Origin: Podarcis gaigeae
Lineage: Eukaryota
Reading direction: 5' to 3' (one strand)
Assembly: GCA_964106915.2 (NCBI GenBank)
Contig: OZ066915.1
Length of the DNA stretch: 64,000 nucleotides
Shown here: positions 1,509 to 47,366 of the stretch, in pieces
Layout of the letters: every line of letters begins with the position of its first letter
Numbering within the stretch: the stretch's first letter is position 1
Translations under genes and position numbers: made by a program
Notes under the pieces: model-generated
Told to the model about the DNA's origin: nothing
The model's database searches: none
The model's input: the letters and a program-made list of their open reading frames with translations, nothing else

Positions 1509-1604
<96 letters not shown>

Positions 1605-2332: not shown

Positions 2333-2492
2333 TCATAGAATCATAGATTTGGAAGGATCTAGTTCAACCCCCTGCAATACAGAAATCTCAGCTAGAGCAT
2401 CCATGATAGATGGCCATCCAACCTTTGCTTAAAAACCTCCAGGGAGGGACAGTCGACAACCTCCCAAAGATGACCGTTCCACTGTCAAACGG
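2333..2492 (-). mobile_element. CR1 LINE 3' end fragment
   Basis: tcatagaatcatag tail followed by ...ggccatccaacctttgcttaaaaacctcc, homologous to the CR1 3' end at 23186. Confidence 0.7.
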
Positions 2493-3822: not shown

Positions 3823-4187
3823 TTTATTTATTGCATTTCTATCCCACCTTTTTCTCCAAGGAGCTCAAATTGGCATACATGATTTTTCCCTTCCTCATTT
3901 AATGCCCTTCAACAATCCTGTGAGGTAGATTAGGTTAAGAGGCAGCAACTGACCCAGGGTCACCCAGTGAGATTCATGGGAGAGTGAAGATTTGAACCCT
4001 GTTCTCCCAGGTCCTGGTCCAACACTGACCCAGCGTTTCTTAAACTTGGGTTCCCAGATGTTCTTAAATTAAAACTCCCACCATCCCTGACCATGCTGGC
4101 TAGGAATGATGGAAGTTGTAGCCCAACAACACCTGGGAACCCAAAGTTGAGAAAGGCTGCTCCAATCACTTCACTACACTGGCTCTC
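3823..4187 (-). mobile_element. tRNA-derived squamate SINE (Squam3-like, family name tentative) with nested MITE
   Basis: Reverse-strand head GAGAGCCAGTGTAGTG, B-box-like GGTTCAAATC, A-rich tail; interrupted at 4031-4159. Confidence 0.65.
4031..4159. mobile_element. Short palindromic hAT-like MITE
   Basis: TIRs CAGCGTTTCTTAAACTTGGG / CCCAAAGTTGAGAAAGGCTG; core aactccca...ggaagttgtag shared with copies at about 34481-34612, 44863-45000, 50250-50365, 51756-51868. Confidence 0.65.
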
Positions 4188-6792: not shown

Positions 6793-7122
6793 GGCTATGT
6801 ATGATATATAATGACTTTGTCTTTTGTCTTCTTTCCATGCTGTCTCTTTATATTGTTCTATTTTGGCGCAACACCCTCTGAAAATGTCATCCAATCAAAA
6901 TGCACTATGAAAAATCCATCTGTCCATCCATGAACTGGTCTGTGTGTCCATGCTAATGAATATTTCTGAACTTCCCTGCCCTGATCCCTCTCCCATCACC
7001 AAAAATGAAATCACTGCCTTCTGCATTTCTCCGTTTGCTGGTTGGAACTCAACTTGCGGTATTAAAACACCCACCCTTCCCTGACCTTCTCTGATCCTCT
7101 CCATCTCAATGTTTGCATCTAG
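6793..7122 (+). promoter_or_regulatory. Splicing control region of microexon 31a: ~330-nt AG-exclusion zone, YCAY (NOVA-type) cluster, UGC near the 3' splice site
   Basis: No AG dinucleotide before the acceptor; repeated TCAT/CCAT/TCAC at about 6887-7015; tttgcatctag. Confidence 0.7.
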
Positions 7123-7128
7123 GATCCG
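7123..7128 (+). CDS. CACNA1A: CACNA1A 6-nt alternative microexon 31a (IVS3-S4 linker), GATCCG = Asp-Pro
   Basis: tttgcatctag|GATCCG|gttggt; no AG from 6793 to 7120; YCAY cluster upstream, TGCATG at 7194-7199; one base different from the mammalian AATCCG (NP) exon at the same gene position. Confidence 0.85.
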
Positions 7129-9321
7129 GTTGGTTTGATTACTTTCTCAAGCCTAAGTGCCTTACATTAATCAAAAGCATCTTCTTGGCGCATTGCATGA
7201 TCTTTTGAGCCAAAGATGCCTGCAGTTTACTGGGCAGCTTCCGCTTTTAGTCCCCCCACTTACCCCATATTGTGTCACTTATTTTATTCAGATTCACATA
7301 TGGCTTCCAGTAACCCCATAGCAGGGATGTGGTATATATGCTGGCTGTTTGCCATAATAAACATTGATTGATTGAGGGATATGGTATAGTAATACTGCAG
7401 CCTTGGTGATGCCAATCTCTGAAGAGATGATTGCATTTAATCTAAGACTTGCATCAGTATGGATAGGCTTTCTAAAAGGATATGGTGGTAGATAGAAAGC
7501 TGTATCTGCAAGTTGCTGGGTTCTGACCCAGGGCCAGTGTCAGTTTCTGTCTGGGGGGAAACCTGGGATGGGAATTCAACATGCAAGTACCTTACTTGAT
7601 GACATACAAAACCTGATGACAGTTTGCATGGGTGGAGCATCCACCACAGTTGAAATACTACAGATACTTTGCATATCATCTGGCATCACCTCCAGGCACA
7701 TAGTTTTTGCAGTGTGTGCGCAGTCAAATAGAAGACCTAAAAATCCCACTTGTCAATAGCTATCTGAACAAGTACAGAAAAGCCCTGCACCCCCAGCTTC
7801 ATTCTGCGCGCACAGGCATACCCATTCACTCAAAACTTTTCACATTTAACCTTCCCTTAATGCATACAACTTTAGCTGGGTATCCACTTACCACCTAAAC
7901 ACAACACACGCAAACACATTTCCTCACACATGAACTGACCCTAAGGTCCTCTCAGTGATATTAGTATTCTCCATATACTTTCAGCCATGCACAGACAACC
8001 TCTGCTTTGGTCAGTTGAAGTAGAACAATTCCTTAGAAGAAGTAAAATATCATTATAACTATGGAAATTAGCCCAAGCCCATTTAGGAGTATTGAGAAGG
8101 ATATTAACATCCCTTTTCCTGAGAGTCAGTTGTGGAGGGTGAGTCAAAGAGAAATCCTTAATTTTATTTCTCTGGGCCACATTCAGTCTTACTTTTCTAA
8201 CAAACACCGATACTCCTCTTAAGATTAGGGTAGACATTAATTTTGAAAGATTGCATGTGCGTCCGTTTCACATATTTAACAAAATCTCAAGAGGAATCTG
8301 TTGAGAAAACGTCTTCAAAATGAAACAGACATATATATAATAAATATAAATCAAATTGAAACAGACACACATCACAGACACAATGCATAGCTTGAAGCAT
8401 TGATGCCTCCTATACTGGTTGGCTGACTTGGTACAATGATCTAAATATTCAGTTGCTGAAAGGACATTGCTACTTAAAGTCCAGCTTTTCTGAGGGAGGG
8501 TAAATTGACAGTTTGACTGAAGAAATCTTGGCCTGTAGTGAAGCTTAGTGATAAAGTGTTCAGAAGAAGGGAGGCAGAATGAATGGTACAGAGTAGGAAA
8601 TGGACTGAAAGCAGGAAATCTGAAGGAAGGGTTGATGAGCTAGGAAAAAGCAGCAACGGGAGTTGAGGCAAAAAAGAAAAGGAGGAGGTGGCAGTGAAGA
8701 TATTCACCAATGTGTAAGATCAAGAGGCAGGTGTATGGTGTATGTTTGGGGCAGGAGAGTGCTAGGACTGTTAGCCAAAAGAGACAGGATGAATAAAAAG
8801 TGTGGGGCAAAGTAGAGTGGACTGAAAAAATGCAATAAAATTTGTAGGTGGAGACATGGAACGGAACTGAAGAAAGTAGGATACAAGAAGAAAGCTGAGC
8901 TAGGACTGTGGATTTTGTCTGAAAGGAAATGGGCAGGCAAGAGAGGTTTGGAGGACTAGAGACAGTGGAACCGGGGGGGGGGGCGTGTTTCTAGATCTAG
9001 TCTGACACAGGTTTCCACCGGTTAAATAGTTTACTTTCACTGCATCATTGTGTCCTGGAATAAGATTCAAAAGGCAAGGGGCAGAGCTGAAATATATATA
9101 TTGGTTTAAACAAAAGAGCTAAATGTTTTGGCTGAAAGATTGTCAACTTAAGATATTGACCTTAGAATAGGCTTAAAAAGTAATGTAGGAAGTGAACTTT
9201 GGAATGCAGGTGGTTAATAGGAAAGAGAGAATGGTGTGTGGCACCATTCCTAATGGTCTGTGTGGGCATATATTTCCAACTGGAAATGGGTGTGGGTCCC
9301 CTGCCTTTCTCTCTTTCCCTC

Positions 9322-9437
9322 TGCATGAATATCATTCTTTGTTTGTCCTGCATGATCTGAGCATGGCAGTTTTAACAAACTGGTTTCACCCCATTGTATG
9401 TGTCACAGAGCCACCTCCACTACTGCCACCATGCATG
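9322..9437 (+). promoter_or_regulatory. RBFOX-motif cluster in intron 31
   Basis: TGCATG at 9322, 9349, 9432; GCATG at 9361; another TGCATG at 9673. Confidence 0.55.
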
Positions 9438-11020
9438 TCCACTGAAATCCCAATTAGAGGAACAGCCTTTTTGGAGGGTTGGAGAAGGATGGGCTTATAG
9501 CTTCTGGGAAGACACATGCAAACACATGCATATAAAGAGTGAAGATGCAGCAATTAGGTTTCTTTTTGGAAGAGAAAATAAATCCTATTACAGTACATGG
9601 ATATATTTGGCTGCAAGAACCACACTGTATGTCCACTGTGTTGTCACACACTTATAATGTCCACTGTGTAACTGCATGGCAATTCCTCAGTCTTTGTTTT
9701 ATAATTATAGAGCAAGGCATGTAGCAAGCCGGTACGTGTTGAGTGGTCACACCAATCTTTTGGCATGTGTATTGCCTGAGTCATTTTTGTGCAGTTTTCT
9801 TTGGAGTTTGTGTATGAGGGGCGCTGTAGCACAGGTACTTTCATGAGTCTTGAGGGAGATGTTGGTACAACTACATTCATTCCTGTGATGTATGTTGCAT
9901 AGATATCCCTACGCACTCAATCCGCCAGATCACTTGCACTGTTTAGTGTACTATGGTGAAGCCACATGGTAATTCTCTTTGGAACCGTTAGAGCCAGCCA
10001 GGTTGTCCCTTTACAGTGTTCTCATTGCTTGAACATGCAATTCGGGTTCCAGTGAGATCAAAGTGTGGTTCCATTGAGTTCAATATCGAAACCCAGGAAA
10101 CGTCCATGGTGCATAGATTACTAAAGCACTTAACCGTTCATACTGGGGCTAAAATACAGATTCCTGTTCAAGGGCTTTTGCCCAGGGATAAAGCTCATGT
10201 GTTTCTTACATGAGCTAAATATAAGTTGGCATTTTGTATCTAAGTTTATCTTTTTCTGTGCTAGGCCCTTCTTCCAACCTTTACTGGAACTCTTTTTTAG
10301 AAAGTGTCTGAAGGTCTCAGTGGTAGTTGCTAGAGATACACAAACACATACATCAATATTCTATTGTCCAAACTCAGGTGATATCCTAACCCTCAGAAAC
10401 CTTGGGCATCTTTCGCTCTCAGGGGCTGTGGGTGTCTGGCCATAGAACACTTTGCAACTAAGAAGTACATTGTCACACTTCAATGTATTCATTTTATCCC
10501 AGAAGCTTATATGCCATTTCCTCTGAAGGAGACAGATAAAAATGCATCTTGGTGAACCCAACAGGAGAATGTTTTTCCTATCTTGCCAGAATCACAAATC
10601 CTTCTTTTAGCTACAAATTTGTTGAACTAAGCTCTTCCTTCAGGGCTTGGGGTGTGGCTCAACACCTGTTGGGTGCACAGAACAGATGCATTTTCCATCG
10701 AGAATGATATGATTGCAAGTCTCCAGACATTTCTCAGCTCTCCTCTTCCTCACTGGCACTTGTCTTGCTTTCTCCTCTCTCCAGATTTGTGTGCACAGAA
10801 CATGTGTGATGTGAGGCCACACAATAATGTTCTGCCTGCTTGTGTCAAAAAATATCAGTGCATTTGGTTGTGGGTATATTTTTTAAAAAATGTAATCATG
10901 TGCTAATGAATTATCACTGATTTTCCAAATGGATGATTTTCCAAGTAGAGGGGTGGCTTTATTATCATGCTAATTTTCTTCATGTGTGTGATCCCTCTCC
11001 CTTTCTTTGCTATTCAATGA

Positions 11021-11299
<279 letters not shown>

Positions 11300-17146: not shown

Positions 17147-17314
<168 letters not shown>

Positions 17315-18033
17315 TAAGGACATGCCTACCTGGCCGTTCCCAATACTGTACTCACAGCCATTGCCCCACACCAAGCAAAAGCTTGGGAAAGTGGATCAAA
17401 TTGATCCATGCTTGGGGAAAACTCTCCTTAGTAAGGAAAACAGGGGCAGGGGATGGGGAAGAATTAGGCCTTAGAAGCTGGGCAGCGAGGCTACAGCTTA
17501 AGATTCCTGGGTCCTGCTGATTCCAACTCTATTAGGAAAGAGATTTAGCAGTGTGAAAGCTAAGACACCTATGCTCTCTATATTACTTTCACACAAGAAG
17601 TGCATTGGCTGGTAGGAGCATCGACCCCTGTGTTTTTGTTCATCTCAGGAAGGGAAACAATATTTAGGACTACAAAAGAAAAATAGTCTTATGCTTGTTC
17701 TACTCTAACAGAGCGAAGATATGATGTCATATTGGTAGATACAGTCCTTATCTGTAATGATGTGAGAGAAAGGCAGAAGCCTAATCTGAGGCAGAGACTG
17801 GAGCCACTGCCCCTGTTTGCATGCAGCTCCATTGTGAGTCACCCACCTTAGCTGAGTTCCAGTCAGTGTGGATCTGTGGCCACTGCCACTCTGCCATTCC
17901 CATTCCTGTTGGCTAATTTCTGTGGGTCTCACTAGGAACAAGAGATTGCAAGAAGCAGATATGGGGGAGGTTTATCTCTGATTAACATTTCCTCTTTTAA
18001 TTTTAGGTTTTTGCAGCTGGACTCTGTCAACTT

Positions 18034-18076
18034 CACACACGCACACGCACACGCACACACACACACACACGCACAC
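18034..18076. repeat. (CA)n/(CACG) microsatellite
   Basis: Direct read. Confidence 0.85.
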
Positions 18077-18228
18077 CCTTACATTATCCCATATGTTCAA
18101 AAGGGCATGATGTATGGCCCCTTGTGCCCAGGGATACCTGTTGCCATTTCCCTATTCTACCTAGTGGGCTATGTAGCCCCTACTGTAGGAAAACTGAGTA
18201 ACATCACTAGTGTCACTTGAGCCAGACA

Positions 18229-18335
18229 TGTGTATCTGAAGAAGTGTGCATGCACACGAAAGCTTACACCCAGAACAAACTTAGTTGGACTCTAAGGTGC
18301 TACTGGACAATTTTTAATTTTTATTTATTTATTTA
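18229..18335 (+). mobile_element. Penelope-like element terminal fragment with minimal hammerhead ribozyme core
   Basis: CTGAAGA-a-GTGTGC-at-GCACAC-GAAA-GCTT followed by ttagttgg..taaggtgctactgg; 12-bp TSD TTGAGCCAGACA at 18217-18228 and 18336-18347. Confidence 0.75.
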
Positions 18336-19446
18336 TTGAGCCAGACAGTTATCTCAGTGAAGCCCCTGATGGTAGCAGCTATGCTTCATGTTTTGTGTCA
18401 TGTTAGTAGTATGTGAGCTAAAAAAGGGTTATTGTGGTACTGACATGGAAGCCGTCACAGAACCTACCAGTGTTACGTATTGTTCAGCCATTAAAGAAAT
18501 GTGCTCAATAGCTCTGTTAGTTATAAATGACACACTTCTCAAATGTTGGCCTGTAGAGAGGTGTTTGTTTGTTTGTTTGTTTGTTTGTTTGTATGTTTGT
18601 GTATGTATGTGAGACAGAGAGAGAGAGCATGTGTATGTGTGTGCCTGCTAGGGCCTGGCCTACCATTCTGGTGTGTAACTATTCTTGTAATTTTTTTATG
18701 GTTTGCTGGGGAGGAGGCCAAGCACTCTGCTGCTGCAAGCAGGCACAGTGAGCAGAGTTGTGATAATTGGCACCTAACAGAAGGTCCACCCAGCGTTCTC
18801 TTGGTATCGTTTGTCACCCCTGTGCCCTGTTGAGAATGAATGCCCGTTGTGTCCAGGTTTAATGTGTTTGTTTACGCTGCCAGCCCTAACTGGCAAAACC
18901 TGCCAAGCCCAGCTGAGGGAGTGTTCATCAGGGAGCCTGTGCCATGCAGGGGCAGGAAAACCAGGTCTGCCCCCGCCTGAGCACTGGTTTCTATGCATTT
19001 ATTAATAAGGAAGAAAAATGTTGGAATGGGAAGCCCATGGCTCCTAGAGTCCATGGCACAATGACTGGTTTTAGAACGTCCATTGTGAGTTACAGAAAGG
19101 CAGCAATGCCTAATGGAAGACATACCCAAGTTGGGACCTCAGCTCACACTTGACACATGATCTTTGATAAATCTCACCATGCTGCATAGTTGTGTGTCAT
19201 TCCCCTATCTTCCTGTCACCCTATATATTAATGAAAATGGTACTGGCTCATCTTTTTCCCCAGTACTGATGGAGAACCCAATAGAGCTGCAGCAAAACCT
19301 GGGCTGCACAGCTCTGAGAAGCCCCTTTCCCCCTGCTGCCACCTATGGGAATGTACAGTTTCTCCATAAGCCCTGGGGGGGGGGTGTGGTTTGGCTGGAC
19401 TGAAGGTCTCTAGCCGGCAGTCCTGCTATGTTCTGTGTGTTAATGA

Positions 19447-19608
<162 letters not shown>

Positions 19609-20558
19609 TGACTTACACTAAAACCTGCTAGCATCAACGGAATGAATGTTGCTTATGATTTCTTTAATATATATATTTCATATATATATATCTATATATA
19701 TCTGTACACATACCTATCTCTATATATTGCACTTTCAAGAGTAATTTAATGTAATTAGCCAACAGAATGCGTGAAATGATGCTGCCACCCAGACCAGTAA
19801 CGCATGGAGCATACCGGTTACCTTGAACCATCTCTGCTTGCTGTTAGCTGGAGCTAGGCCTGGAGGGTTCTATGAGTCTCTCTCTCTCTACTCACCTCCA
19901 CCACTCTCTGCACATTAATACTTCATTTGGGGAGGACAGAGACTCCATTGACACCTCTGCCATTTCCCCCCCTCCCCTCCCCTCCCCTCCCCACTTCTTT
20001 CCACCACCCCCTTTCCCTCCACCTTCTCTTCCTGCACTCTGCCCTCCTCCCACATTGGCAAAGAGGGGCTTTCTCATCTCAATCTGTCTTTCTCTTTCTC
20101 TCCTTCTTTCTGTGGATCTTCATTACTAAGAGGACCTGACTCTGCACTCCTTGGCCCTATAAGCCCATGGAGGATTGTGGTCTGCATTTATAACCTGAGG
20201 CTGAGTAAACTAGATGGAGGCACATGCTTAAGTTAAACCTGTCCCTTTTGCAATGGGAACGCTAGCTCTGTAAGTACGGAGCTTGCACTTAAGCATTTTG
20301 CTGGATCACAGCCAGTTTGAGGAGCCATCTTTCTACTCCCAGTCGTCCATGAAGATCAAGCATATTTGAACTCTTGGCTGACAAGCAGCACAGTAATCTT
20401 TACATTTTTATCTTCCATTTTTTTCTTTTCCAATTGATTTCCAATATTTTTCTCTTCTTTGCATCTCTCTCTCTTTTCTATTTTTCTGTGTATTTTTTCC
20501 TTTTTTAATTATTATTAATTTTTTTTGGTTGTTTTTATTTTTAATTTTTTGCTCCCAG

Positions 20559-20655
20559 GGGCCGGATGACTTTCATGGACATGTATGAGATGCTGAGACA
20601 CATGTCTCCACCCCTGGGGCTAGGGAAGAAATGCCCTGCCCGTGTTGCTTATAAG
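20559..20655 (+). CDS. CACNA1A: CACNA1A mutually exclusive exon 37b (EFb): (W)[32 protein letters not shown]
   Basis: ctcccag|G GGC...AAG|gtagaa; 97 nt; paralogous to 37a; long U-rich tract upstream. Confidence 0.95.
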
Positions 20656-22544
20656 GTAGAATAATTTTTAAGAAATAAACAAGGCATATTTCAAGTTAGC
20701 TTCATTTTTAATTATTTTTTTTCAACAACAAAAATACAAAAGCTATAATTTTTGTACATTTCTTCCCCCTTCTCAATACAATTTCTTGAGCAGTAACAGT
20801 GTGTCCGTTCAGTACCGTTAGCGTTTCATGTTTCAGAGACTCCATTATGGCCAATAAATGTTGGGTGGGTAAGAAACAACTCCAAGGTGCATGATCCTAC
20901 TCAAAATCCTCCATCAAAGTGCCACCACCCTGTCCTCCTGCATCTAGCAGAAGAGACACTGCTTTTAAAATGTTTCACCTCCCATTCCCTTTGCCGCCGC
21001 CTCCCCCCCCCCCACCCAAACAATTTAAACAGCTGTGATTGCTCTGAAACTATCCAGCCAATACAGAATGAACTGGGAAGAACAAAGCCGGAAGGGGAAG
21101 AGAGACCAAAGATCCAAAACACATTTAATGGCACTATGAGTACTTTTGATCAGGCCAGTGTGTCCGCTTCTAGTGTGGGGGTCAAAATGATATTAGTCAC
21201 CATTACCTTCACTCTCCAGAAAGAGCTGATGCCATTGGATTGAAATGTTTTCTAAATAAGTAAAATGCATGGCCCTGTGCATCTATTCATCAGTTTTCCT
21301 CTACCTGGGCAATCTTTCCCTTTGACACTGTAGTGGAGCTCCTGAATCTCTGTTAAAATCCAGTTAACCACATTGCAGGGGTAGGTTGCAGCATAGTACA
21401 TATGACTGTTGATGAGCTTTTTGGTGTCAATATAGAGAACACTGCAGAGAAAATTAATGTTATACCCATTAATTGAAAGCATATGATGCACTTGAACTGC
21501 CCATATATGCAGGTGAACAATGTAGCATATAACTAGAAGTTTGCCCACACTCATCCATTTCAGACAAAATCCCCCCAATGAGATGAAGTTTCTGTGGTTC
21601 CCAACTTTCATGAATGCACCTCACATGTTCAGCAGTATCCAGGACCCAAAATCCCCTGGTGTCTTTCACGGTATGAACAGAGCTCTCCCAGGAATTCCTG
21701 ATCAACCTCCTGTGAGTAATGTGAAATGTGGGGATAGCACAGGTAGCACAAAGGCAGAAGCACGTTATTCAGACTCCATGCCCTGGTTCTCACGGATGAG
21801 GTAATTTGCAGGGATCAGTTAATTTCCTTGTATCTGGGTTTAGATTATCTGGATAAATTCCAGATAAATTTCACAATATTTCAAAACAGCAGGAAATTAA
21901 ATGTAAACAAGATAGTAAGAAAGCCACTGTCCTCACAATTTGTTCCTCTGTCAAGTGAACACTGAAACATAAAAGCCCAGGAACATTTGTGCAGCAAATG
22001 GTATCATCCCTTAAGGAGCTCCATTGGGAGTTCCCAGGGCTTTTTTTTCCAGTTCTGGGACCTCTCTTTTGGACTCCATTGCCTTTCTGATAGAACAGGG
22101 GAGGTGTTTGGGGTGATTTCTGGCACCTCTTTTTAAGAAGAATTGCACTGTGAGTCCCAAGGACAAAGGCAGTGCCCCCATCTATCCCCACCCCCCTGCA
22201 TCCTAGAGACATTGGATAGTGTGAAGGGACCAGAATGCATGTGTGGCTTCCTGCACATGATGAGAGCCTATGCAATGATAAGACAAAGTCACTTTCAGTT
22301 TCAGTGAGGGAGATAAAGCCATGGAAAAGTGATAGGTCACCAAGGAAGGCGAGGACAGTGCAATTTACCCCATGGTCCTCTTTGCCCCCCCCCAATGATA
22401 TGGGATCCTAGTTGCTCCTGAGTGTCCTCCCAGGCATTGTGGAGCCTGTTCTGCACCTAAGGACAAGTGGTCATTAGGAGATTTGGGGTGAGGTGACCTC
22501 AGTATGCTGATGCTACCCAGCTCTGCTCTGTAACATCAGGAGAG

Positions 22545-24206
22545 ACTGTGCAAGCTATAGATTTGTACCTGGACTAGGGGCTGGATAAGAGCCAGTAAAC
22601 CAGCTCTGAATCCTAGCAAGGCAAAGGTGCTGTAGTGAGTGTTTCCCAAGTCCAGATAATTGGTCAATTGCCTGTTTTGGATAGGGTCATACTCCCCCCC
22701 CCCCAAAAAAAAAGCAGGTTTGTAGCCTGGAGATACTCCTGGATCCATCTTTATCATTAGAGGCCCAGATGACCTCAGTGGCTAGGAATGCCTTCTACCA
22801 GCTTCAACTGGTAAGACAGCTACAGCCATTTCTGGATCAGAATATCCTGACCGCCAGGCTGGATTACTTACTTCAGTGTACTTGCCTTTGGGGTTGGTCC
22901 AGAAGCTGCAGCTGTTGCAAAATCTGGTGCTTAGCTACCAGGCTAAATTCGTGGTGCTGGTTTTGCTGTATAAAGACCTATACAGCATGGGACCAGGATA
23001 CCCAAAGGATTGTCTTACACCTTAGATACCTAGTCAATCATTGTGCTTTGCAGGTGAGGGCCTCCTCAGAAGGTCCATCCTGTACAATGTCAGAATTGGG
23101 CCCTACCATTTGGAATTCCCTTTCCTTAAATAGTAGATAGGTGCACCTAACGAAGATCTTCCTCTTTCATCAGGCCTTTTAAGATGAATCATAGAATCAT
23201 AGAGTTGGAAGAGACCACAAGGGCCATCGAGTCCAACCCCCTGCCAAGCAGGAAACACCATCAGAGCACTCCTGACATATGGTTGTCAAGCCTCTGCTTA
23301 AAGACCTCCAAAGAAGGAGACTCCACCACACTCCTTGGCAGCAAATTCCACTGTCGAACAGCTCTTACTGTCAGGAAGTTCTTCCTAATGTTTAGGTGGA
23401 ATCTTCTTTCTTGTAGTTTGGAACCATTGTTCCGTGTCCGCTTCTCTGGAGCAGCAGAAAACAACCTTTCTCCCTCCTCTATGTGACATCCTTTTATATA
23501 TTTGAACATGGCTATCATATCACCCCTTAACCTCCTCTTCTCCAGGCTAAACATGCCCAGCTCCCTTAGCCGTTCCTCATAAGGCATCGTTTCCAGGCCT
23601 TTGACCATTTTGGTTGCCCTCCTCTGGACACGTTCCAGTTTGTCAGTGTCCTTCTTGAACTGTGGTGCCCAGAACTGGACACAGTACTCCAGGTGAGGTC
23701 TGACCAGATCAGAATACAGTGGCACTATTACTTCCCTTGATCTAGATGCTATACTCCTATTGATGCAGCCCAGAATTGCATTGGCTTTTTTAGCTGCCGC
23801 GTCACACTGTTGGCTCATGTCAAGTTTGTGGTCAACCAAGACTCCTAGATCCTTTACACATGTACTGCTCTCAAGCCAGGTGTCACCCATCTTGTATTTG
23901 TGCCTCTCATTTTTTATTTTTTTTTGCCCAAGTGCAATACTTTAAATTCATCTTGTTTGTTTTGGCCCAGTTCTCTAATCTGTCAAGGTCATTTTGAAGT
24001 GTGATCCTATCCTCTGGGGTGTTAGCCACCCCTCCCCACCCCTACTACGAACATACCCATGCAGATCTTTACCAGTCTGCATCTGTACTTTAATTGTTTT
24101 AAAGATGGTTTTATTATTTTATCCCTTGTGGTTCACTGCCTTGGGCTTCTTTGAAAGGAAGGGCAGGGTATAAATTTAATTAATAAATAATAAATAAAAT
24201 AAATAA
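22545..24206 (+). mobile_element. Old L2-type LINE fragment, interrupted by a CR1 insertion
   Basis: Decayed RT C-terminal peptide (SVARNAFYQLQLVRQLQPFLD...RLDY) and 3' tail gggcagggtataaat(taaa)n at about 24160-24206. Confidence 0.65.
23187..24035 (-). mobile_element. Young 5'-truncated CR1 LINE (ORF2 RT C-terminus intact, 209 aa)
   Basis: ORF 23261-23890 with [10 protein letters not shown]...[13 protein letters not shown]...RRLRGDMI; CR1-type (ATTCTATG)n tail. Confidence 0.93.
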
Positions 24207-24471
24207 CATCACATCTAGTTTGGTGCTGATAATGATTTATAAAGCTCGTTCTGAGCATTTAATTCAGTATTTAACCAGTATGCAATTAGAGTTCTCACTT
24301 GCTATGCATTTTTTTCATAATTGAAGTTTTTCTGTTGTATGTATCCTAGAGATCACTTTTGATCTACACCACTTTCCTTAACCATGGCATAGGTATGGCC
24401 ACTTGGTGCTGCATTCATATGGCAGCAGCTGATAATGCAATTTAGTACAGAAGCATAAATTTAGGAAACAA

Positions 24472-24556
24472 TACTGAATAATGAAAAATAGGATTTTGAT
24501 TGATGGTCCTTTTTACTGAATAATGAAAAATAGGATTTTGAATGATGATCCTTTTT
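24472..24556. repeat. 42-bp tandem duplication
   Basis: tactgaataatgaaaaataggattttga.tgatg.tccttttt twice, 2 mismatches. Confidence 0.85.
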
Positions 24557-27500
24557 CAGTACACTAGGGTATGCTACCCATGTTAAGCCTGCTCAGTCAC
24601 CAACCTGCCATTTGAGCTTGTGGGAATCATTGTCCGGATTAGAACACATGGCACATGATTTGCAGGTGTTAGTGTGCTTGGCACTTGAAAAACCATCTTT
24701 CTGGAAATGAATTGAAACTGGTAGAATTGGGCTTGTATTATGCGGGTCTTCACAGAGTTTTATTATGGTTTAAGCACCAGTTTACTAGTTCAGACTTTTG
24801 TGCAAGACAGACAGTATTCACCTTCAGCTGCCAGTTAACAAGAGCCTAGAAGTGCAGGACTATACTTATTACCTCTTACACATGTACAGGCTAGCAACAG
24901 AACACATGCCCAGGTAGAGCTACTTCTGGGTAAAAGTTAGACTCAAGTCTTGGGCTCCATCAACCAACTTGCCTATGGGTTGCAGTTCATTCTGCAGTTG
25001 GGATTGCTCTCTCATGCCCTTCCGGCTGCCTATAAAAGAATAAGGGAGGTGGGGAAGTTCTTGTAGTTGTTCTAATGGCTCTTTTGATCTCTTTGCATAA
25101 CTTAAAACAGACACCCATGCCTTTTCAGTGCTTCTGCCTCCATAACGGTGTAACTTCCTACAAAAGAACACAACCTAAGGGGAAGTAGTTCACTACTCTT
25201 AACCAGAGACGAATTAACAGCAACTAACCTTTTTCTCTGCCCCCTTCTCTCTGCTGCTCCATGCCTCCTTCTCTGTCAATGCAGTTCTAACCTATCAGAA
25301 GCTTTTCCCTTCTGCTCCTCCATAACTTCATATTCTAACCCTAAACCTTTTATGCATCTCAGCAGCTGATCATCAAGCTACATCTTCTTTCTCCTTTTCT
25401 TCCCTAAGTCTACCACTCATACCCAGAGCTTCCCCTCTCACATTTTCTATGTTATGTGTGTGGTCTCTCTTTCACCCTTCTGAACCATTGGGTTTCTATT
25501 GCTGGTTCATGGCACAGGTATTGAAAAGCTCACTCTCACTTGAAAGGGTCCTTGGATTCTGCAAGTTTAGTGTGGGGAGAAGGGGGAAGATACAAAACTC
25601 TGCCAGTTTTATCAGTGGGGATAGACTCTGTAGTAAAGGTTTCAGTGCAGTCTGATGCCACAGAAACTGTGTAGTGAACATGCCACTATAGGATGAGAAA
25701 TGTAGGAAGATTTGGGGAGAGGGTACTCAAATCCACCCAAGCAAGAGCAGTAAGTAAAATGAATGTTTGAAAAGGCCATGGTGAGTAGGAGGCAGTAACT
25801 GAAATAGGTTTTTCAGATGGAAGATTATACTACTGTATCCTGATGGCAGCCAGCAACTAATACTTCCTTCAGACTATAATATCAGACCAATCGTTGCACT
25901 GAAACATACGTGAAATGATCAGAGTGCTGGGAGAGATGAGGTCAGTTTGCTCACATTGCTCTGCCAATGGAAGAACCTTGTGGGAGGGGTGAATTGCACA
26001 GCTATGCAAGTGCTACCACACCTTTCCGATCTCTGGTGCTTGTGTGGTTCTTCACATGTAATTCTACCCCTTCCACATGGTTCCTGCGTTTTTTGGTAAC
26101 CAAAGTGGAAGCCATAAGAGAAGTGTGATCATTCTCCAACTGCATCTTGCTACGGAAGTAAACATGACAGCTCTTTCAACATCTTGGTAGATCCTTTTTG
26201 TGATATGTTTTAATTTGGGTTTAGGAGCAGGGGAAGGGTGTTATTCTTCTGTTGGAATGGTCATAATCTTACTCAGTGAGAAAACATGAATTTCTCAGCC
26301 AGTTTGACTGTATCTTATGAGCTGAACATGCTTAATAGAGACAATATGTATAAATGAAAAAATTACTTTTAAAGCAGTAAGTCTGATGGAGAATATTGCA
26401 TGCGGACTAAACTTGAAGAAGTAACAATAATCACTCTGATGTTTTGATACTACTGTGACTACTACAGTAGTCTTGAGGAGGATGTGATTTTTTTTAGAAG
26501 CAGAGAGAGATGGAATGGGCAAGAGGAGAAAGAGAATTCCATTCATTGGAGGAAGCAAATTATGGGCGTGTGAATAGGCTCCATGAGAAGACCCTGATTT
26601 ATAAACCAGTGCCTCTGTGTAATCTCCAAAAGGGTGCAAGTCTGCCAGCAACTCCATAAGGAATTGTATATTGACTTTCGTTGAACCATGACTGTTTCTG
26701 AGATTTGGGCTAAAAGTGAATCTGAATTGCTGCAGGCATTGCTTTGTCGCATTCATACTGGTTCTTAACAACTACCCCAGTTCTTAATGATTGGTTCAAA
26801 AACTGATGCTAATATTTTGACCCCACACATGGAGGTTGCAAAAATGCTTTCTAGTTTGATTTTGTCTTATGTTGATATCAGCACATCTACGATGTAGGTC
26901 AGACAATTAAATCTTCATATGAAAGCTGTTGGAAAATGTATTTGCCAGTCACCTGTCAATTAGCTGGCTTGAACAAGTGAAGAATCTCCATGGTAGTTGC
27001 TCTGCAGGAAAATAAATTATCCAGTCACTGCTTTGCACCACCGGACTACTTTGCCAGCCTATATTTGAATAGAAAACCAGGTCTTCAATCTTCCTACAAT
27101 TTGATTAAAAGGAAGAAGAGGCCAAATGCCCTGGCAGGCTGCCTGTTTATCTTGGCACTGAGCGCAGGGTCAAGTGCCACCATTGGGCAGTTGTTCCCAT
27201 GCCCAGGGGAACACCCACAAGGCCCTGCTGCCATTGGTCAATTTGGCATCAGAGAACAATCCGGCCTGTCATATGCCGGTTCACGAGAGCGTATTGGGGC
27301 CTGCCTGCAAAGCCGCCCATTCCAGAAGGGCAAACGGACTTTCTCTTCAGTGCAAATCTCCAAAAAATTTTGCTGTACTAACCTGGCATTGATAATTGCT
27401 TTGGATTTGAAGAAATTAGAACATATATACTTCTTTTTATAAAAAACAAAAAACCCTGCCCAAACTTTTAAAGAAAGTTTGCACCTACAGGACCACTATA

Positions 27501-30500
27501 AGAAGTACTGCAACCTGATATTGTTACTGTTGAAATTCCAAATTCTGTTCCTCTATCATTGGTGGGAAACCAAGTGTTCTCTTTCCACTCATCTTTTTGT
27601 CACAGCTCTTGAGTTCTTGGATAATTAAAGGCACTCTCGGTATTGCCGCTCATCTCCTTTCGCTCAGTTCCTGCAGCCAAAGAGGCAGAAGAGTTCATAG
27701 GCTGATAACACTGCATAACAATTTTTGACAAAAGTCATGCCTCTGAGATAAAAGTAGCCATTTCTTATAGATTTTGAGGTGCTGAATACGAATATGACAA
27801 TGCAACGCATTGTCGGCTACAGTTTCTCAGAGATCTGCAATCATTTATTATAATTTGAGTATGACTATATGCTACCAAAACAGTAGCTGTTTGAGAAACG
27901 TGAATTATTTGGCTTGAATGCTATCTAACTGAAGAAGCAATACATTGGATAGTGGATATGGAAGATATGGAAAGAGGGCAGGTGAAAGGTAAAAAAATGT
28001 GCTTTAAAAAACCCAACCACCAGTTAACAACTAGAAGATTTGAAAGGCTACAAAGAAAATGTCCTGCCCTGTCAGGCACATACACGTTAATAGTCAGCCC
28101 AGTGTTGAATATATATGAACAATCTGAATTTCATCTGCTTACCTGAAGCCCAGTATTGTTTGCTCACTTACTTTGATTGGAAGTGGCTTTTCGAGGTCTT
28201 AGGCAGAAGTCCCCGTCCCCCATCATCTGCTTCCTGATCCTTTTAACTGCATATGCATGTGAATGAATTTGGGACATTCTATGTACAAAGCATATACTCC
28301 ACCACTGACCTATATCCTGTCTCCTGGAACAGTCGAAAGCTAAAGCCTGTGAGTACCAACAAACTATACTGTATTGCCATACTTGCTAAGATGCTGATAC
28401 AGATGGGAGGCCCTCCACACAAATCGAATATGCTGTGATAGTCATAGTAACTGCTGTTTGCTGCACATAAATGTCAAAAAGGAGCATTGCAGAGAGTTTA
28501 ACTACATTACCCTTTGGGTCCCTTCCAACTCTACAATTCTATAAGAATATGCAAAGTTGCAGTAAATCAAGTCTATCTAGCCTATCTAATGCCTTTCCCA
28601 GCTTTTGTTTCCTGAGACCCTTCAATCAGAGATGCCAGAGATTGAATCCAAGACCTGCAAACAATTTGTTATACTACTAAGCTAAGCCCTTTTTCCCACC
28701 TAGAGGGAAAGTCATCCTTGGTATCTAACTACTTTCATGCCTCAGTTAATTGTGACAACCCCAGGATAAGAAAAACAACAACAACTCAACTAAGTACATG
28801 CTGGTCAGAGAAGAATAAAATTCCTTAGGACAAATTTGAAGAGACTTGGTGGTATTGCAGTTAGGGTGCAGGCTGCGTTCGCAGAATACCTCTTGCATTT
28901 TTGCTATTCTTCAGACAGGAGGCACAAGTGACCATGTTTTGAAAAAGCCACCACTATGCTAACTTCTCAATGAAATACTGAAATCCAGTCCTAAGTTGTG
29001 GAGAGTCACAGGAAGATATGGAACCATTGTGAGTCCGCACTGCAGTCCATGCCTCCTATCATGGGATGATTTGCAATGATCATGTTATGGCTGGAGAAGA
29101 GCAGCACACTGATGAATCGTTTCTGAATGGGGGCAAAAATCTAATTAGCCTTGATGCAGATGGAGTTGTTAAAAGTGGTTAATGGCAGTATTAGGCTCAT
29201 CATGTAAGGCTAAGCAATTAGGTAGGGTGGGGTAAAAAAACTAGTACCTCCAGATGTTTTAGGACTATGGTTCCCATCATCCCTGACAATTAGCAATGCT
29301 GCCTTGGGGAGTTGTAGCCCAAAAACATCTGGAGGGTATAGGAAAGCTTTGTTTGTACCATGTTGACTTTTTACATAAGGAAATGCACATAGCTACCTGT
29401 GCCTTAGACCCTGGTAAGGCATCTTCTTTCAAAGGAGACTGTATGCAGGAGCTTGTATTGGGTGTCAGGAATCCCAGGTTAGCATAGACTTGGTGAAAGG
29501 AGGATGAAGAGATGGGAGAAGGAATGTGGTGTGTGGAGCTCAAGGTAAATGAACTTTAGGCTAGAGGCCTTGGTGTCAAGACTCATAGGTCTCATTCCTA
29601 GCTGTGCTATTTCCATATCTGTGCTTTATGTCCCAGCTTTACAAAACCCTTTGAGTAAAAATATTGTTTTCAGTGCAATACACTATAATAATCTCTCTCC
29701 TCTGTAATGGCCCACTCCTCTGTAAATCTTCCATGTCCTTCCCATTTGCTACCATTGTCCATACATCCCTTGGTTCATTCAACCATGACATCAGCTGTCC
29801 AGAAAACCAGAGAGAGATAAATTTGTTCTGCAGTTCCCTTACATATTTGTGGGGAAGAGAATTGGGATTTCTGAGTGCCCTATTTGCCCTGGTAAAGAAT
29901 TGCTGCCTGTATCCATCTACCCCCACCATTATCCCTTATTCACTGTTGCTGTCCCTAATCATACAGAGATCCCAGGGTTTATTCTGCATGAGACAGCAAT
30001 CCAAGGGACCCAATTCTCCTACAGAATTGGCATTTTCATAATCATTAGCCTGCATACACTATGGCTAACATGATTTGGCTCTTTCATCTCCCTTACTATT
30101 GCAATCCATGCATGCTCCAGTGCATGGAAAAGCTAGGGCGCTGCCCCCAAATAAGCGCACTGTGAATTCTGTGCCATTGAAACACACACACATGCACACA
30201 TACAGAAATTCAAATTCAGTAAGCAGAAACTACAAACTATAAGTGATTTTTTAAATGAACAATACAAATCTGTATGAATATTTCTATAACATTTTGTTTT
30301 TGTTTTGGTTGGCATTGAGATATTTTGGGTCACTACAAGAAATGCTTCAGGGAATTGAATGCAACAAAACAATAGGGGGAAAGTGGGTATAGAATGACTC
30401 TTGGAAGAAGGGCATGTGGCATGGGAGTGGGGAGGAGGGGAGCCACAAGCAACTGCTACACCCAGGCCTAATATCACAGTTTGTGATATAAGAATAGCTG

Positions 30501-31149
30501 CAGTGTGGTAACATTTGAAGGAAGACAATTCTGTGGGTGGAAGCAGCAAGGTAGTTTACAAACCTATAACAGTTCTGCAGGTCCTGGGAGAGGTCACTGC
30601 TCCTATGGGAGGTAACTATGCTGCTGGCCCCAGCCACATGAATCCATTGTTACTAGAGGTCAGCCATGCTGTAGCAGTTCCTATGCCATTCATAAAAGCA
30701 AAGTAACACTCAGGGTTTATCCACAGTTATATTTCCTCTACTTCTTCCAGGCACAGTCTGCGCTTTAAAACACCGCATTCAAGTGCTCTCTCTTTTTTTG
30801 CCCCATCGCATTCCCTGCAAAAACCCACTCTTTAAAGCTCAATCAGAGCAAACAGCAATCTGCTGGGAAACCCAAATTGATGCTTGCTTCAATTGGGTTC
30901 TAAAGAGCAGGTTTTCACAGGGAAAGCTTCGGGGGGGGGGGGCGGAGATCCAACAATTCTTGGACATGGAGCTTTTGAGTGCAAACCTGTGTCTGGAAAG
31001 AGCAGGAGAAATGGTAGCTGTGGATAAGCCCCCAGTCTTGTAGACTGCCAGAATCCTGGGGTATCCACTGAGGGTTTATCCACACTTTCTCTTGTCCCGC
31101 TGCTTTCCTCCAGGGAAAACTGCTCTTTAGAGCTCAAGTTATCTCTCAC

Positions 31150-31677
31150 TTGGACTACTGCAGTGCACTCTATGTGGGGCTACCTTTGAAGGTGACCCAG
31201 AAACTAATCCAGAATGCGGCAGCTAGACTGGTGACTGGGAGAGGCCGCTGAGACTACATAACACTGGTCTTGAAAGACCTACATTGGCTCCCAGTACGTT
31301 TCCAAGCACAATTCAAAGTGTTGGTGCTGACCTTTAAAGGCCTAAATAGCCTCTGTCCAGTATACCTGAAGGAGCGTCTCCACCCCCATTGTTCTGCCCT
31401 GACACTGAGGTTCAGGGCCAAGGGCCTTCTGGCAGTTTCCTCACTGCGGGAAGCCAAGTTACAGGGAACCAGACAGGCTTTCTCGGTAGTGGCACCCACC
31501 CTGTGGAACGTCCTCCCACCAGATTTCAAAGAGAAAAACAACTACCAGACTTTTAGAAGACACCTGAAGGCAGCCCTGTTTAGGGAAGCTTTTAATGTTT
31601 AATAGACTATTGTATTTTAATATTTTGTTGGAAGCCGCCCAGATGGGCAGGGTATAAATACAGTAATAAATTATTAT
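31150..31677 (+). mobile_element. L2-type LINE 3' fragment
   Basis: ORF LHWLPVRFQAQFKVLVLTFKGLN...AFSVVAPTLWN; gggcagggtataaat tail. Confidence 0.8.
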
Positions 31678-31746
31678 TAGAATCATAGAATCATAGAGTT
31701 GGAAGAGACCACAAGGGCCATCGAGTCCAACCCCCTGCCAAGTAGG
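31678..31746 (-). mobile_element. Very short CR1 3'-end insertion with 10-bp TSD
   Basis: Nearly identical to 23187-23254; flanked by AAATTATTAT at 31668-31677 and 31747-31756. Confidence 0.8.
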
Positions 31747-32857
31747 AAATTATTATATTGTAATCCGAGCAAATAACAATTCAGGTTCCCCACAAATTGC
31801 CATTTGTTCCAATCTATCGCTAAAGAGCATGTTTTCCCTTGGAAAGGAACAGGGCAAGGGAAAACTTCTTGGACCCATGCTTTCTAGGCAGGGCACAAGT
31901 GGAAAAGTCAACAAGCCCTGAGTGAGGCAGTCACCAAGAGGTGTGGCTATTGAGTTCTGGTTGCAAAGCAAAAATATAATTTCTACAACTACTGTTAAAC
32001 TTTTGGTCAACTGCCAAAAAGTACAGAGAGTCCATCCCCGGTCCTCTGTGAATTCTGAATGCAATGCAAAAAGAAGGTCTAAGGGATGAGAAGGAAAATA
32101 AGGTTGCTTCATCTTGTTTTATGAGGTGCCTCACCTTTGGGATCCACAACAGATCCTGCATATGGCCCAAAAAAAAGGCTTGACTCTGCAAGATCTTCTG
32201 ACAGGTTGAATTAAGTTATGTGACTGAAATGGATTTGATGCCCAGGCCATGTACCTTGTTCATGGACAGCTCAGGAACACAAGGTAATGTGAGGGCACAG
32301 GCAGCATTCTTACCAAATTGCCAAAGAGGAGGAAATTCTGAGTACCCAAGTACGAAGCACTGAGGAAGATCTGTTCAGTCTAATGCAGGCTGCTCTCCCA
32401 AGATTTACAGGTTTTCTGGACATCAGATTCCTGAGGGATCTTCCTACTTAATGTGTCATCATCATTATCATTATCATTACCATCATCTATATGTGTGTCT
32501 CCCTCTTTCTTTCTCCTCTTCCTTCAGAGTTTTTGATCTCATCTGTCATTCTGTGCACCTCTGTTCAGTGACATCCACTTAATGAACCCCAAGGACCCTG
32601 ACCGTCTAACCCCCATTTCCATTGGTCCTATCTCAGCTAATGCACTAGCTGGTCAAGCCCCACCCTGAGCATCTTGTGTGATCTCCAGCCCACAGCCTTG
32701 GCTCAGGAATGGCACATGGCCCATAGTCTGTCAATTTCATTTCTTTCTTTTCTACCTTAAGGATGCACCCATTTTTTGCACCAAGAGCCCACAATCCGGA
32801 TCTCTCCCTTAGAGCAATCTATACCAGAGCTATGAATGAGTCTCAACGTGTTCTCTG

Positions 32858-32903
32858 TGCATGCTTTTGCACTGTGCTGCATGCTGCATGCTCTTTTTGC
32901 ATG
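32858..32903 (+). promoter_or_regulatory. Dense RBFOX-motif cluster (4x TGCATG in 46 nt)
   Basis: TGCATG at 32858, 32878, 32885, 32898. Confidence 0.7.
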
Positions 32904-33061
32904 CTCTAGTCTTGCGCATTTGATGAAATCTGTTCTGTTGAATGTTTGTGTGCATTCTCCTTGGACCCCATCCCTTTACCACTGCTGTCTACTGCTGTCT
33001 TGGATAGTTGGGATTTTATTTGGGTTTTTCCTTTGTTTTACACTTTTTTACTTTTATATAG

Positions 33062-33089
33062 ACAATGAGCTCTTTGGGGAGAACTCTCT
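33062..33089 (+). other. Candidate 28-nt poison (NMD) exon between exons 37 and 38
   Basis: Strong pyrimidine tract ...ttttacttttatatag|ACA...CTC T|gtaagt; joining to exon 38 creates T|AG stop. Confidence 0.45.
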
Positions 33090-33748
33090 GTAAGTTTGGA
33101 AGAGGACCTTAAAAGGGATACATTCTGGAGAGGAGAGATTACATCATGAGAGACTTAGTTGGATAGGACAAATGGGACTCATCTACAGCTAGGGGATGAG
33201 AGTAGCTCTAGTGACCCAAGCTAGGAGCCTAGAATATTCCTATTTTTGAAAACTGATACAGTGGGCTAGAAAAGAAGCTGGGAAACTGCCTCCAAGTCTA
33301 ATACAGACAACATAAGGGTCTCCTTGCAGAGGTCTTCAGACTACAGTCATCTCTGGCTAAAGTCACTGGCAAAAACCCAGTAGATAATCTTGCAGAGTGT
33401 TTAAGGTAATTCTCAGTGGGATGAATTTCTAAGCAACATGTTTAGGAGTGCAACCAGGTCCATACAGTTATTATGTGGGGTTATTTCCAGGCCCATCTTC
33501 TAGTAGCTGATGTGGAATCCTCATACCAGTATCTGAAAGCAGTTGGGTGAAAGCAAAATAAGGTGTGATAAGAGCCGAATATCCAGATAATAGCATATTG
33601 CAACTGGGCTCTGGTCCTCATGATATTGGGTGGGAAGTGAGGTTAAAACATGAGTAGGAGGATTCGATGCAAGTTATTGAACTCAGAGTTCTCCCCAGAG
33701 CTCATATACTCCTCTGTGCATGATAACCTGGGTGGTGGGGAGTTGTGA

Positions 33749-33889
<141 letters not shown>

Positions 33890-34981
33890 TGACACCCCCA
33901 TAAACACAGCAAGAGAGAGCAGTTTCTTTCCTGACAGATTAGAGAATTCTGGGAAATTAAATATTGGAAAGCAAAGCCTGGGAAAAGTTATCAATTAGCA
34001 ATAATTTTGCCTCAGATTAACCTCATCCGCTACACTACTACCACTGCACAATTATAATACCTGCTAGTTCTTTTATATAGACAATACGTTGCACATAAAT
34101 ATGTATGCAAATGCCTATAGGAGAAACAAGGCTCCCTGGACCAGATATTCCCCAGGGAGTAGTAGTAAGGGGTAGGCATTCTGCCTCTTAATTGGTCAAA
34201 CATAACAGTACCAGCCTATGCATGAAGAAAGCAGTTACCGGTATGTTAAAGACCCATCAGAAGAATGATACTGCCTTTAAAACCTAGGAACATTTCACTG
34301 TAGAGTTTTACACAGGATGAAATGTGCTTGTCATTATTAAAAGCTCCAAGGCCCCTTTTTTGACTCGCTTGGGTTGGAGATCTTTCTGGTTATTTTGCCA
34401 TAGTAGTTTGTCTCCTTGCCCCCTACAGCCCCAGGGTGCATTCCACATCTTTCAGGAAGACTTCTCCCAAAGTGTAGATAAGGGTTGCAGAACCTGTGGC
34501 CTTCCAGATGCTGCTGGACTCTAACTCAGCTTCAGCCAATATGGCCAATGGTCAGGGATGATGGGAGTTGTAGTCCAGCAACATATGGAGGGCCACAGGT
34601 TCCCCATCTCTGATCTACATGCAAGGAGTCATCTTACTGAGTGGTATGGAATGCACCCTGACCAAAATAATAATAATAAGGATGTAGAATATTCTAATAT
34701 AGAATTTTAGAATGTTAAGGAGAAAACTGTTCTAGAATCCTCTCTGACTTGCCAGCTTTCTGTGTCCCAGGAAATGTTGAGGGCAGCAATGGTCAAACAT
34801 ACCAACTAACACCTACAATGTGAAGTGTGACTGATTCAGCTCTGATATAGAGTGGCTATAACAGCAATGGGGCACATCCATACCGTACATTTAAAGCAAT
34901 GCACATTTAATCCAATGCACATTTAAAGTACACGACTTCCCCCAGAGAATCCTGGGAACTGTAGTTTGTTAAGGCTGCTAG

Positions 34982-35326
<345 letters not shown>

Positions 35327-38035: not shown

Positions 38036-38644
38036 CATGGGTAGGCAAACTAAGGCCCAGGGGCTGGATCCAGCCCAATCGCCTTCTAAATCCAGCCTGC
38101 AGGTGGTCTGGGAATCAGCGTGTTTTTACATGAGTAGAATGTGTGCTTTTATTTAAAATGCATCTCTGGGTTATTTGTGGGGCCTGCCTGGTGTTTTTAC
38201 ATGAGTAGAATGTGTCCTTTTATTTAAAATGCATCTCTGGGTTATTTGTGGGGCCTGCCTGGTGTTTTTACATGAGTAGAATGTGTCCTTTTATTTAAAA
38301 TGCATCTCTGGGTTATTTGTGGGGCCTGCCTGGTGTTTTTACATGAGTAGAATGTGTGCTTTTATTTAAAATGCATCTCTGGGTTATTTGTGGGGCCTGC
38401 CTGGTGTTTTTACATGAGTAGAATGTGTGCTTTTATTTAAAATGCATCTCTGGGTTATTTGTGGGGCCTGCCTGGTGTTTTTACATGAGTAGAATGTGTG
38501 CTTTTATTTAAAATGCATCTCTGGGTTATTTGTGGGGAATAGGAATTTGTTCATCCCCCCCCCAAAAAAAAAAATGGTCCGGCCCTCCACAAGGTCTGAG
38601 GGACAGTGGACTGGCCCCCTGCTGAACAAGTTTGCTGACCCCTG
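38036..38644. mobile_element. Non-autonomous hAT transposon carrying an internal minisatellite
   Basis: TIRs CATGGGTAGGCAAACT / AGTTTGCTGACCCCTG; 8-bp TSD TTGTAGAC / TTGTAGAT. Confidence 0.85.
38120..38537. repeat. 71-bp tandem repeat, about 5.9 copies
   Basis: Unit starts at 38120, 38191, 38262, 38333, 38404, 38475; units differ by a single G/C site. Confidence 0.95.
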
Positions 38645-47100: not shown

Positions 47101-47330
47101 ATCTGAGAATATGAGCTTCCAGCACTGGGCTGGGCTGGGCTGGCCTTGTGCATAAATGACCAACATTAACCTGACTGTTCTCTCCTTACACTCCTCCCTT
47201 CAATCCTTTACCACATTCTGGTTCCTCCACCCTCCCCTTTGGTCCTATATTTCCCTTTGCCTTTATATTTATTTCCTTCTCTCTCTCTCTTTCCCGTTTC
47301 TGTGTGCACCGTCTTGTATGGCTGCGACAG

Positions 47331-47366
47331 TGGAGGAAGGCGCGACCGCGAGGGAATAATCTCAGT
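47331..47366 (+). CDS. CACNA1A: CACNA1A alternative exon 44: WRKARPRGNNLS
   Basis: gctgcgacag|TGG...AGT|gtatgt; 36 nt; no AG from 47123 to 47328; resembles mammalian RRRGRPRGNNLS. Confidence 0.93.

Follow-up and report, generated by a model that had tools for sequence, protein, structure and literature searches.

A tight TGCATG cluster before exon 38 of a reptile CACNA1A gene, a candidate deep-intronic RBFOX enhancer of exon 37

Deep-intronic RBFOX clusters are a known class of splicing element. As delimited in PMC12435732, a cluster holds at least four (T)GCATG motifs within 500 nt on the sense strand and lies more than 500 nt from annotated exons. That source counts about 20,000 such clusters per mammalian genome, and those of Ntrk2 act over 15-25 kb. 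A human CACNA1A site is already in its genome-wide list, as S2 Table gives, among the 2 of its 8 human rows covered here, a four-motif cluster at chr19:13225146-13225545. A second described arrangement is that of Snap25 exon 5b, where binding downstream of the exon together with lower inclusion on loss of the protein is the geometry of an RBFOX activator (PMC10676425). A third concerns CACNA1A itself. Its 168/170-nt exon, which lies between exons 31 and 32 (hg38 chr19:13236449-13236618), is tabulated as an inclusion-type NMD event in PMC13078869 and PMC7347940, and in Rbfox2-null mouse islets the 168-nt exon rises from 0.65 to 0.86 (PMC10676425). This exon, and not the 28-nt candidate discussed below, is the RBFOX2-repressed poison exon of mammalian CACNA1A.

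[quoted passage not shown] Double skipping of both is listed as ES_NMD in PMC7347940. In human neurons, cycloheximide changed the PSI of 37a by -0.34 and that of 37b by -0.30 in PMC13078869, whose own score for human 37b skipping is 'nonNMD' despite the shift. A 2025 review (PMC12149502) gives the splicing factors for 37a as unknown, and PMC7235277 offers only a CTCF/elongation model borrowed from CACNA1B.

The window, the whole 64,000-nt stretch of DNA that was analysed, carries on its + strand a gene that is CACNA1A. The translation of exon 38 is identical at 35 of 35 residues to Cav2.1 of PDB 8x90, and its matches to Cav2.3 and Cav2.2 are weaker. The region of the cluster is single copy in the 1.51-Gb genome. 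Exons were mapped from translation and splice borders, all on the + strand: exon 36 at 17186-17313, exons 37a and 37b at 19509-19605 and 20559-20655 (97 nt each), exon 38 at 33779-33884 (106 nt) and exon 39 at 35190-35297. The sizes of 37a, 37b and exon 38 are those found for mammals in the tables of PMC13078869. Intron 37b-38 is 13.1 kb long in this genome. In a rough PWM with rounded frequencies, the donors of 37a and 37b are the two weakest of 11 real GT donors. The donor of exon 38 is of the GC type (AAG/GCAAGT, with GCAAGT at 33885-33890). The last two bases of exon 36 are TG and the first three of exon 38 are AGA, so a TGA forms at the 36-38 junction when both exons 37 are skipped; the frame also shifts in this genome when both are included.

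Sequence from relatives was available as assembled contigs, which show the presence but not the absence of joints or cover. Of 24 listed runs, 16 were guessed to be RNA, with small shares. Three of these 16, from three organisms, and one of six DNA runs were compared to positions 31800-34400. The DNA run did not cover the element. Exon 38 is spliced to exon 39, through the GC donor, in both run X1 and run X2. Run X1 also has a contig in which the 3' end of 37b runs straight into exon 38, a joint expected under every model.

The cluster consists of four TGCATG hexamers on the + strand starting at 32858, 32878, 32885 and 32898, all within 46 nt (32858-32903). They lie 876-921 nt before exon 38 and 12.2 kb past 37b. 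CT comes next after each hexamer, all four sites read TGCATGCT, and the RBFOX motif overlaps YGCY. No second cluster of four TGCATG in 46 nt is present on either strand in 224 kb, and none was found in a background of 800,000 strand-bases from 40 genome places. The probability of any such cluster in the window is 9.5e-5 under uniform placement, and local dinucleotide shuffles give P <= 0.002. Among 3910 hexamers, 19 form a four-in-46-nt cluster in the window, 16 of them being simple repeats and the other 3 the TGCATG cluster itself. Such tightness goes far beyond what chance would give. Looser groupings of GCATG are common (13 sense and 8 antisense in 224 kb; 27 in 800 kb), and one of them lies in the same intron, at 29986-30423, with five motifs of which three are TGCATG. 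A lone TGCATG at 33717-33722 stands 57-62 nt upstream of exon 38.

The cluster falls under the deep-intronic definition of PMC12435732, both in motif number within 500 nt of sense strand and in distance to annotated exons. Its flanks differ from the trend reported there. Around the cluster, GU pentamers of the hnRNP M type are not enriched (5 versus a mean of 3.1, a count that 24% of windows reach) and G pentamers of the hnRNP H type number 0; the GU/G flank enrichment of PMC12435732 is a population trend outside its cluster definition. Within 200 nt, enrichment is seen for U-rich pentamers instead (top 2.5%). The four motifs are very likely a real RBFOX element. A tight TGCATG cluster between 37b and 38 is absent from the CACNA1B-like and CACNA1E-like loci, so the cluster is no ancestral feature of Cav2 genes. 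These paralog loci (L008-L011) both keep 37a- and 37b-like exons, and the CACNA1E-like locus has several GCATG directly upstream of 37b instead.

A pyrimidine-rich block at 32679-33083, with secondary RBFOX-type and YGCY motifs, encloses the cluster. Upstream of it, positions 32450-32599 hold 10 YCAY in 150 nt, which we take to be NOVA-type motifs; this density is in the top 0.4% of windows and is in part due to a TCAT tandem repeat. Within that run lies a very strong orphan acceptor at 32528, which has no good donor nearby and whose use after exon 37 would give Ser-Phe-stop. It scores 11.2 in the rough PWM, the highest of the acceptors scored. A second orphan acceptor-like tract at 32730-32761 (first exon base 32762) scores 7.1, and the next good donors are only at 33089 or 33405. 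These two acceptors are stronger than that of the 28-nt candidate exon, indicating that pyrimidine tracts resembling acceptors abound in this region as a whole. Local folding at the cluster is unremarkable (z = -1.97). A 19-bp helix can form between the main cluster and another GCATG-rich patch at about 30385-30405; its energy is not above control, and it is expected from the palindrome GCATGC. Rfam gave one chance match, MicF, with an E value of 0.33 and far under the gathering score. Ten ORFs of 41-85 aa cover the region, none taken for a gene, and an exact pattern scan for host DNA in metagenome contigs gave 0 matches.

Mammalian data on the same intron point to a role for a site in this position. 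Table 15 of PMC10676425 lists a mouse RBFOX2 eCLIP peak at mm10 chr8:84617263-84617405 (51.6-fold, 18 versus 0 reads). Given its mm10 coordinates, with 37b ending at 84615670 and exon 38 starting at 84617792, the peak falls within the 2.1-kb intron that follows 37b, about 390-530 nt before exon 38. The chance that one of three Cacna1a peaks falls in that intron is about 4%, with a gene of at least 178 kb in the coordinates. In Table 9 of the same source, 37b inclusion was 1.0, 0.92 and 0.933 in controls versus 0.9, 0.667 and 0.825 in Rbfox2-null islets (FDR 8.8e-4), a fall in mean inclusion from 0.95 to 0.80. The sign, control minus mutant, was fixed from Snap25 exon 5a (-0.19/-0.285), which according to the text of PMC10676425 rises on loss. 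None of the islet Cacna1a changes was called upon MIN6 knock-down, 37b being given as NA. The human cluster listed in PMC12435732 is 374-773 nt upstream of exon 38 by the exon coordinates of PMC13078869; the chance of a cluster in this 2.66-kb human intron is about 9% if the 3.4 clusters per 100 kb of the present genome are taken as the rate.

Given the above, we are moderately confident that the cluster is a deep-intronic enhancer through which RBFOX promotes inclusion of exon 37, with an NMD switch that operates via skipping of exon 37 rather than via a poison exon. The exon promoted is likely 37b, judging from the available mouse data. [quoted passage not shown] Low RBFOX would then mean less 37b and likely more 36-38 joined transcripts, which would be degraded. 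The TGA at the 36-38 joint and the weak donors of 37a and 37b in this genome are consistent with such a switch. The preliminary description of this DNA had proposed an expression switch that restricts productive Cav2.1 mRNA to neurons with high RBFOX. The part by which RBFOX favours productive mRNA fits the mouse data, and the poison-exon route it gave for this is unsupported. Its alternative, in which the cluster acts distally on the choice of exon 37, has turned out to be the better supported branch, as the mouse eCLIP peak, the drop of 37b in islets and the human cluster all bear on it.

This reading has two further steps. We infer that the reptile and mammalian elements, which are matched by position only, are homologous, and that the mouse splicing change is caused by the mouse binding site. 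Against homology, the distance to exon 38 is 0.9 kb here versus 0.4-0.8 kb in mammals and that to 37b is 12 kb versus about 2 kb. Mouse, moreover, has no cluster of at least four motifs in intron 37b-38, all four (4 of 4) of the Cacna1a clusters given for it in PMC12435732 lying elsewhere. The fall in islet PSI is modest (0.15, n = 3 per group in PMC10676425), could be indirect and cannot separate a shift from 37b to 37a from more double skipping. An RNA bridge from the block to positions 17300-32600, which include the 37a/37b region, was considered and rejected, the best energy being -40.4 versus -38.7 kcal/mol in a control stretch; this too counts against action on exon 37, as does the lack of enrichment of the GU/G LASR pentamers. 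RBFOX rises with maturation. A simple rule by which more RBFOX gives more 37b fits poorly, since 37b is the main form early on and the share of 37a grows as maturation proceeds (PMC12165946, PMC7235277).

The reading put forward in the preliminary description was that RBFOX bound at the cluster represses a poison exon downstream; such an exon, if real, may be young and limited to this lineage. The sequence elements described were all confirmed: after the four TGCATG comes a U-rich, AG-free tract of 80% pyrimidine (33020-33061) ending in AG at 33060-61, a 28-nt candidate exon at 33062-33089 that begins 158 nt past the last motif, and an exact GTAAGT at 33090-33095. The candidate thus has AG/GT borders with a polypyrimidine tract, an architecture like that of an exon. 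Joining 36-37b-28-nt exon-38 gives ...AYK TMSSLGRTL and a stop, the product that had been claimed. With the exon included, the frame would therefore end early and a long way before the final junction, also as described, because the stop is at the joint with exon 38, about 104 nt before the 38-39 junction and so past the 50-nt limit for NMD, and further exons follow. Position and strength fared less well. The candidate was said to be immediately upstream of exon 38, yet it lies 690 nt upstream and is not adjacent, and the acceptor called strong is moderate, with a rough PWM score of 3.8 that is below 11 of 12 real exons. The donor scores 0.9, less than 10 of the 11 real GT donors, with its weakness on the exon side. 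How surprising the arrangement is depends on stringency, and its exon-like shape is therefore suggestive but not decisive. A strict descriptor fitted to the candidate picks out no other pair in 224 kb and a single one in the 800-kb background, and the chance of such a pair within 200 nt is 0.02% under these fitted criteria, 1-10% under moderate ones and 25% under loose ones. An exon-like shape this close to the cluster is uncommon (about 1-10%) and counts against action on exon 37. On the other side, acceptor/donor pairs equivalent by PWM occur at 0.48 per kb on both strands, which gives about a 10% chance of one within 200 nt. Enrichment of RBFOX2 peaks within 150 nt upstream of repressed exons and the rise of another Cacna1a poison exon on loss of Rbfox2 (PMC10676425) speak for this reading. 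The five CACNA1A rows of PMC7347940 and those of PMC13078869 (four mouse in Table S2a, five human in S5a) contain no exon between 37b and 38, though the cluster has mammalian counterparts.

Further evidence on the candidate exon comes from organism E. A 506-nt contig of run X8, with a depth of 4.7, spans 32679-33184 unspliced and has five differences, four of which are listed at 32929, 33084, 33088 and 33092. The cluster's TGCATG motifs all stay intact, as does the acceptor tract. The donor reads GTTAGT (+3 A>T), exon bases -2 (C>G) and -6 are also changed, and the donor score falls from 0.9 to -3.3 with no replacement donor within the contig. Three of the five differences thus hit the end or donor of the candidate exon while the four motifs are kept, a clumping with P about 0.003 that counts in favour of action on exon 37. 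The donor change amounts to one uncertain observation, since it rests on a single contig of depth below 5 and the difference may be an error. In that one contig, then, conservation of the splice sites fails at the donor and holds at the acceptor. The 33089-33779 joint is seen in 0 of the 3 guessed-RNA runs, which carries no weight as these are contigs; two of the three cover exon 38 and not the candidate, and one covers the candidate unspliced and not exon 38. With the donor altered in a relative and no exon here in the rows of the mammalian NMD catalogues, the proposal of an RBFOX-regulated exon is unsupported. We consider a real RBFOX-repressed poison exon quite unlikely, and the 28-nt stretch is likely an unused or barely used pseudo-exon. 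It is also conceivable, though very unlikely in our judgment, that both proposals hold at once. An RBFOX element before exon 38, kept across amniotes, would act over up to 12 kb to set both the choice between 37a and 37b and the NMD switch at 36-38, and a newborn 28-nt poison exon, with a donor younger than the split from organism E, would have arisen beside it in this reptile lineage, so that one cluster promotes a coding exon and represses a poison exon.

Local action of the cluster, which is unlikely, would mean that RBFOX masks or decoys the acceptors at 32528, 32762 and 33062, protecting the acceptor of exon 38 or timing removal of the intron; in one variant, a longer exon would end at the better donor at 33405. 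Three acceptor-like tracts do flank the cluster within 540 nt, one of which outscores every real acceptor, the U-rich pentamers are close by, and growth of the intron to 13.1 kb left the element in the vicinity of exon 38. The unspliced contig over 32679-33184 from a guessed-RNA run would also agree with delayed removal, but it may be DNA or ordinary pre-mRNA. A terminal exon starting from 32528 or 32762 was rejected, as neither AATAAA nor ATTAAA occurs before exon 38 and positions 32400-33780 contain a single AATACA. The effect measured in mammals, also against local action, falls on exon 37b (PMC10676425). That the patch is a functionless low-complexity stretch rich in TGC and ATG, its mammalian matches being a coincidence of position, is distinctly unlikely. 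GCATGC is palindromic, the patch is built of few words and both strands have many loose GCATG clusters. Organism E also gives weak conservation: over the 405 nt of block 32679-33083 at most 2 differences are found, compared with 5 over 200 nt of a neighbouring contig, but this comparison is post hoc (Fisher p 0.02-0.04), and across the whole contig p is 0.16. However, no tandem repeat was found there, an own-genome search of 32200-34400 returned no repeat or transposon match, and no second hexamer cluster of this tightness exists, the one present being on the sense strand. The intron and exon in question are moreover those on which the mouse eCLIP peak, the knock-out effect and the human cluster converge (PMC10676425, PMC12435732).

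Other parts of the window recall RBFOX-related sites of the mammalian gene. Before exon 32, orphan acceptors occur at 10265, 10423, 10590 and 10785, within a stretch from 10265 to 10983. That at 10785 is very strong, and a 26-nt AG..GTGAG pair ends at 10810. Seven GCATG, four of them TGCATG, lie within 445 nt at 9323-9767, 0.5-1.5 kb upstream of these acceptors. The mammalian 168/170-nt poison exon sits about 720 nt before exon 32 (PMC13078869, PMC10676425), and the 10265-10983 area may hold the real RBFOX-repressed poison exon of the window. A 6-nt Asn-Pro microexon (31a) with AG/GT borders had no match in 1593-11137 by a narrow pattern. Further downstream, the likely exon 44 (36 nt, WRKARPRGNNLS) is at about 47330-47365, with the nearest GCATG sparse, at 46969 and 45291. 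In mouse and human, GCATG clusters and an eCLIP peak are found just upstream of exon 44 (PMC10676425, PMC12435732), whose inclusion increased by 0.15 in Rbfox2-null islets (PMC10676425). The window also contains a near-perfect 71-nt tandem repeat at 38120-38537, within intron 41-42 (5.9 copies with 99% matches), and inverted-repeat elements at 34432-34660 and 34921-35049, likely old MITE-type transposons with many genome copies of 72-92% identity.

Taken together, the cluster, the mouse peak and knock-out and the human cluster name a short element for EF-hand isoform choice in Cav2.1. The same element would be relevant to NMD-coupled Cav2.1 dosage and thus to CACNA1A haploinsufficiency (episodic ataxia 2, epileptic encephalopathy). 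In human, chr19:13225146-13225545 would be a place for a search for deep-intronic variants and for splice-switching oligonucleotides; no link of this site to exon 37 was found in the literature searched. If an amniote-wide element is the true reading, it would be the first named RNA element for 37a/37b choice. The surprise is modest, as the class is known and the human site already catalogued.

Among described systems, the cluster is most like the RBFOX/LASR deep-intronic clusters of PMC12435732 such as those in Ntrk2. It shares with them at least four motifs per 500 nt, a distance of more than 500 nt from exons, a place in a neuronal gene and alternative exons kilobases off, and it has a human CACNA1A counterpart in their catalogue. 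It differs in being tighter, with four full hexamers in 46 nt, in having U-rich rather than GU/G flanks, and in coming from a reptile, where it is known from sequence. The similarity to Snap25 exons 5a/5b (PMC10676425) lies in an RBFOX2 site, in mouse, downstream of the second of two duplicated exons, the inclusion of that second exon being lowered by loss of the protein. Unlike in Snap25, the site is 12 kb from that exon (about 2 kb in mammals) and near the next constitutive exon, and skipping of both CACNA1A exons 37 leads to an immediate stop. The 168/170-nt poison exon between exons 31 and 32 resembles the 28-nt proposal in gene, in coupling to NMD and in being the kind of exon that goes up in Rbfox2-null islets, but it differs in intron and size and is conserved between mouse and human, whereas the 28-nt candidate has no mammalian counterpart in the catalogue rows. 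Finally, the mammalian double-skip NMD event of 37a and 37b (PMC13078869, PMC7347940) has a direct likeness here, as a stop arises at the corresponding joint of the present gene; the double-skip tables of those two sources name no cis-element or factor.
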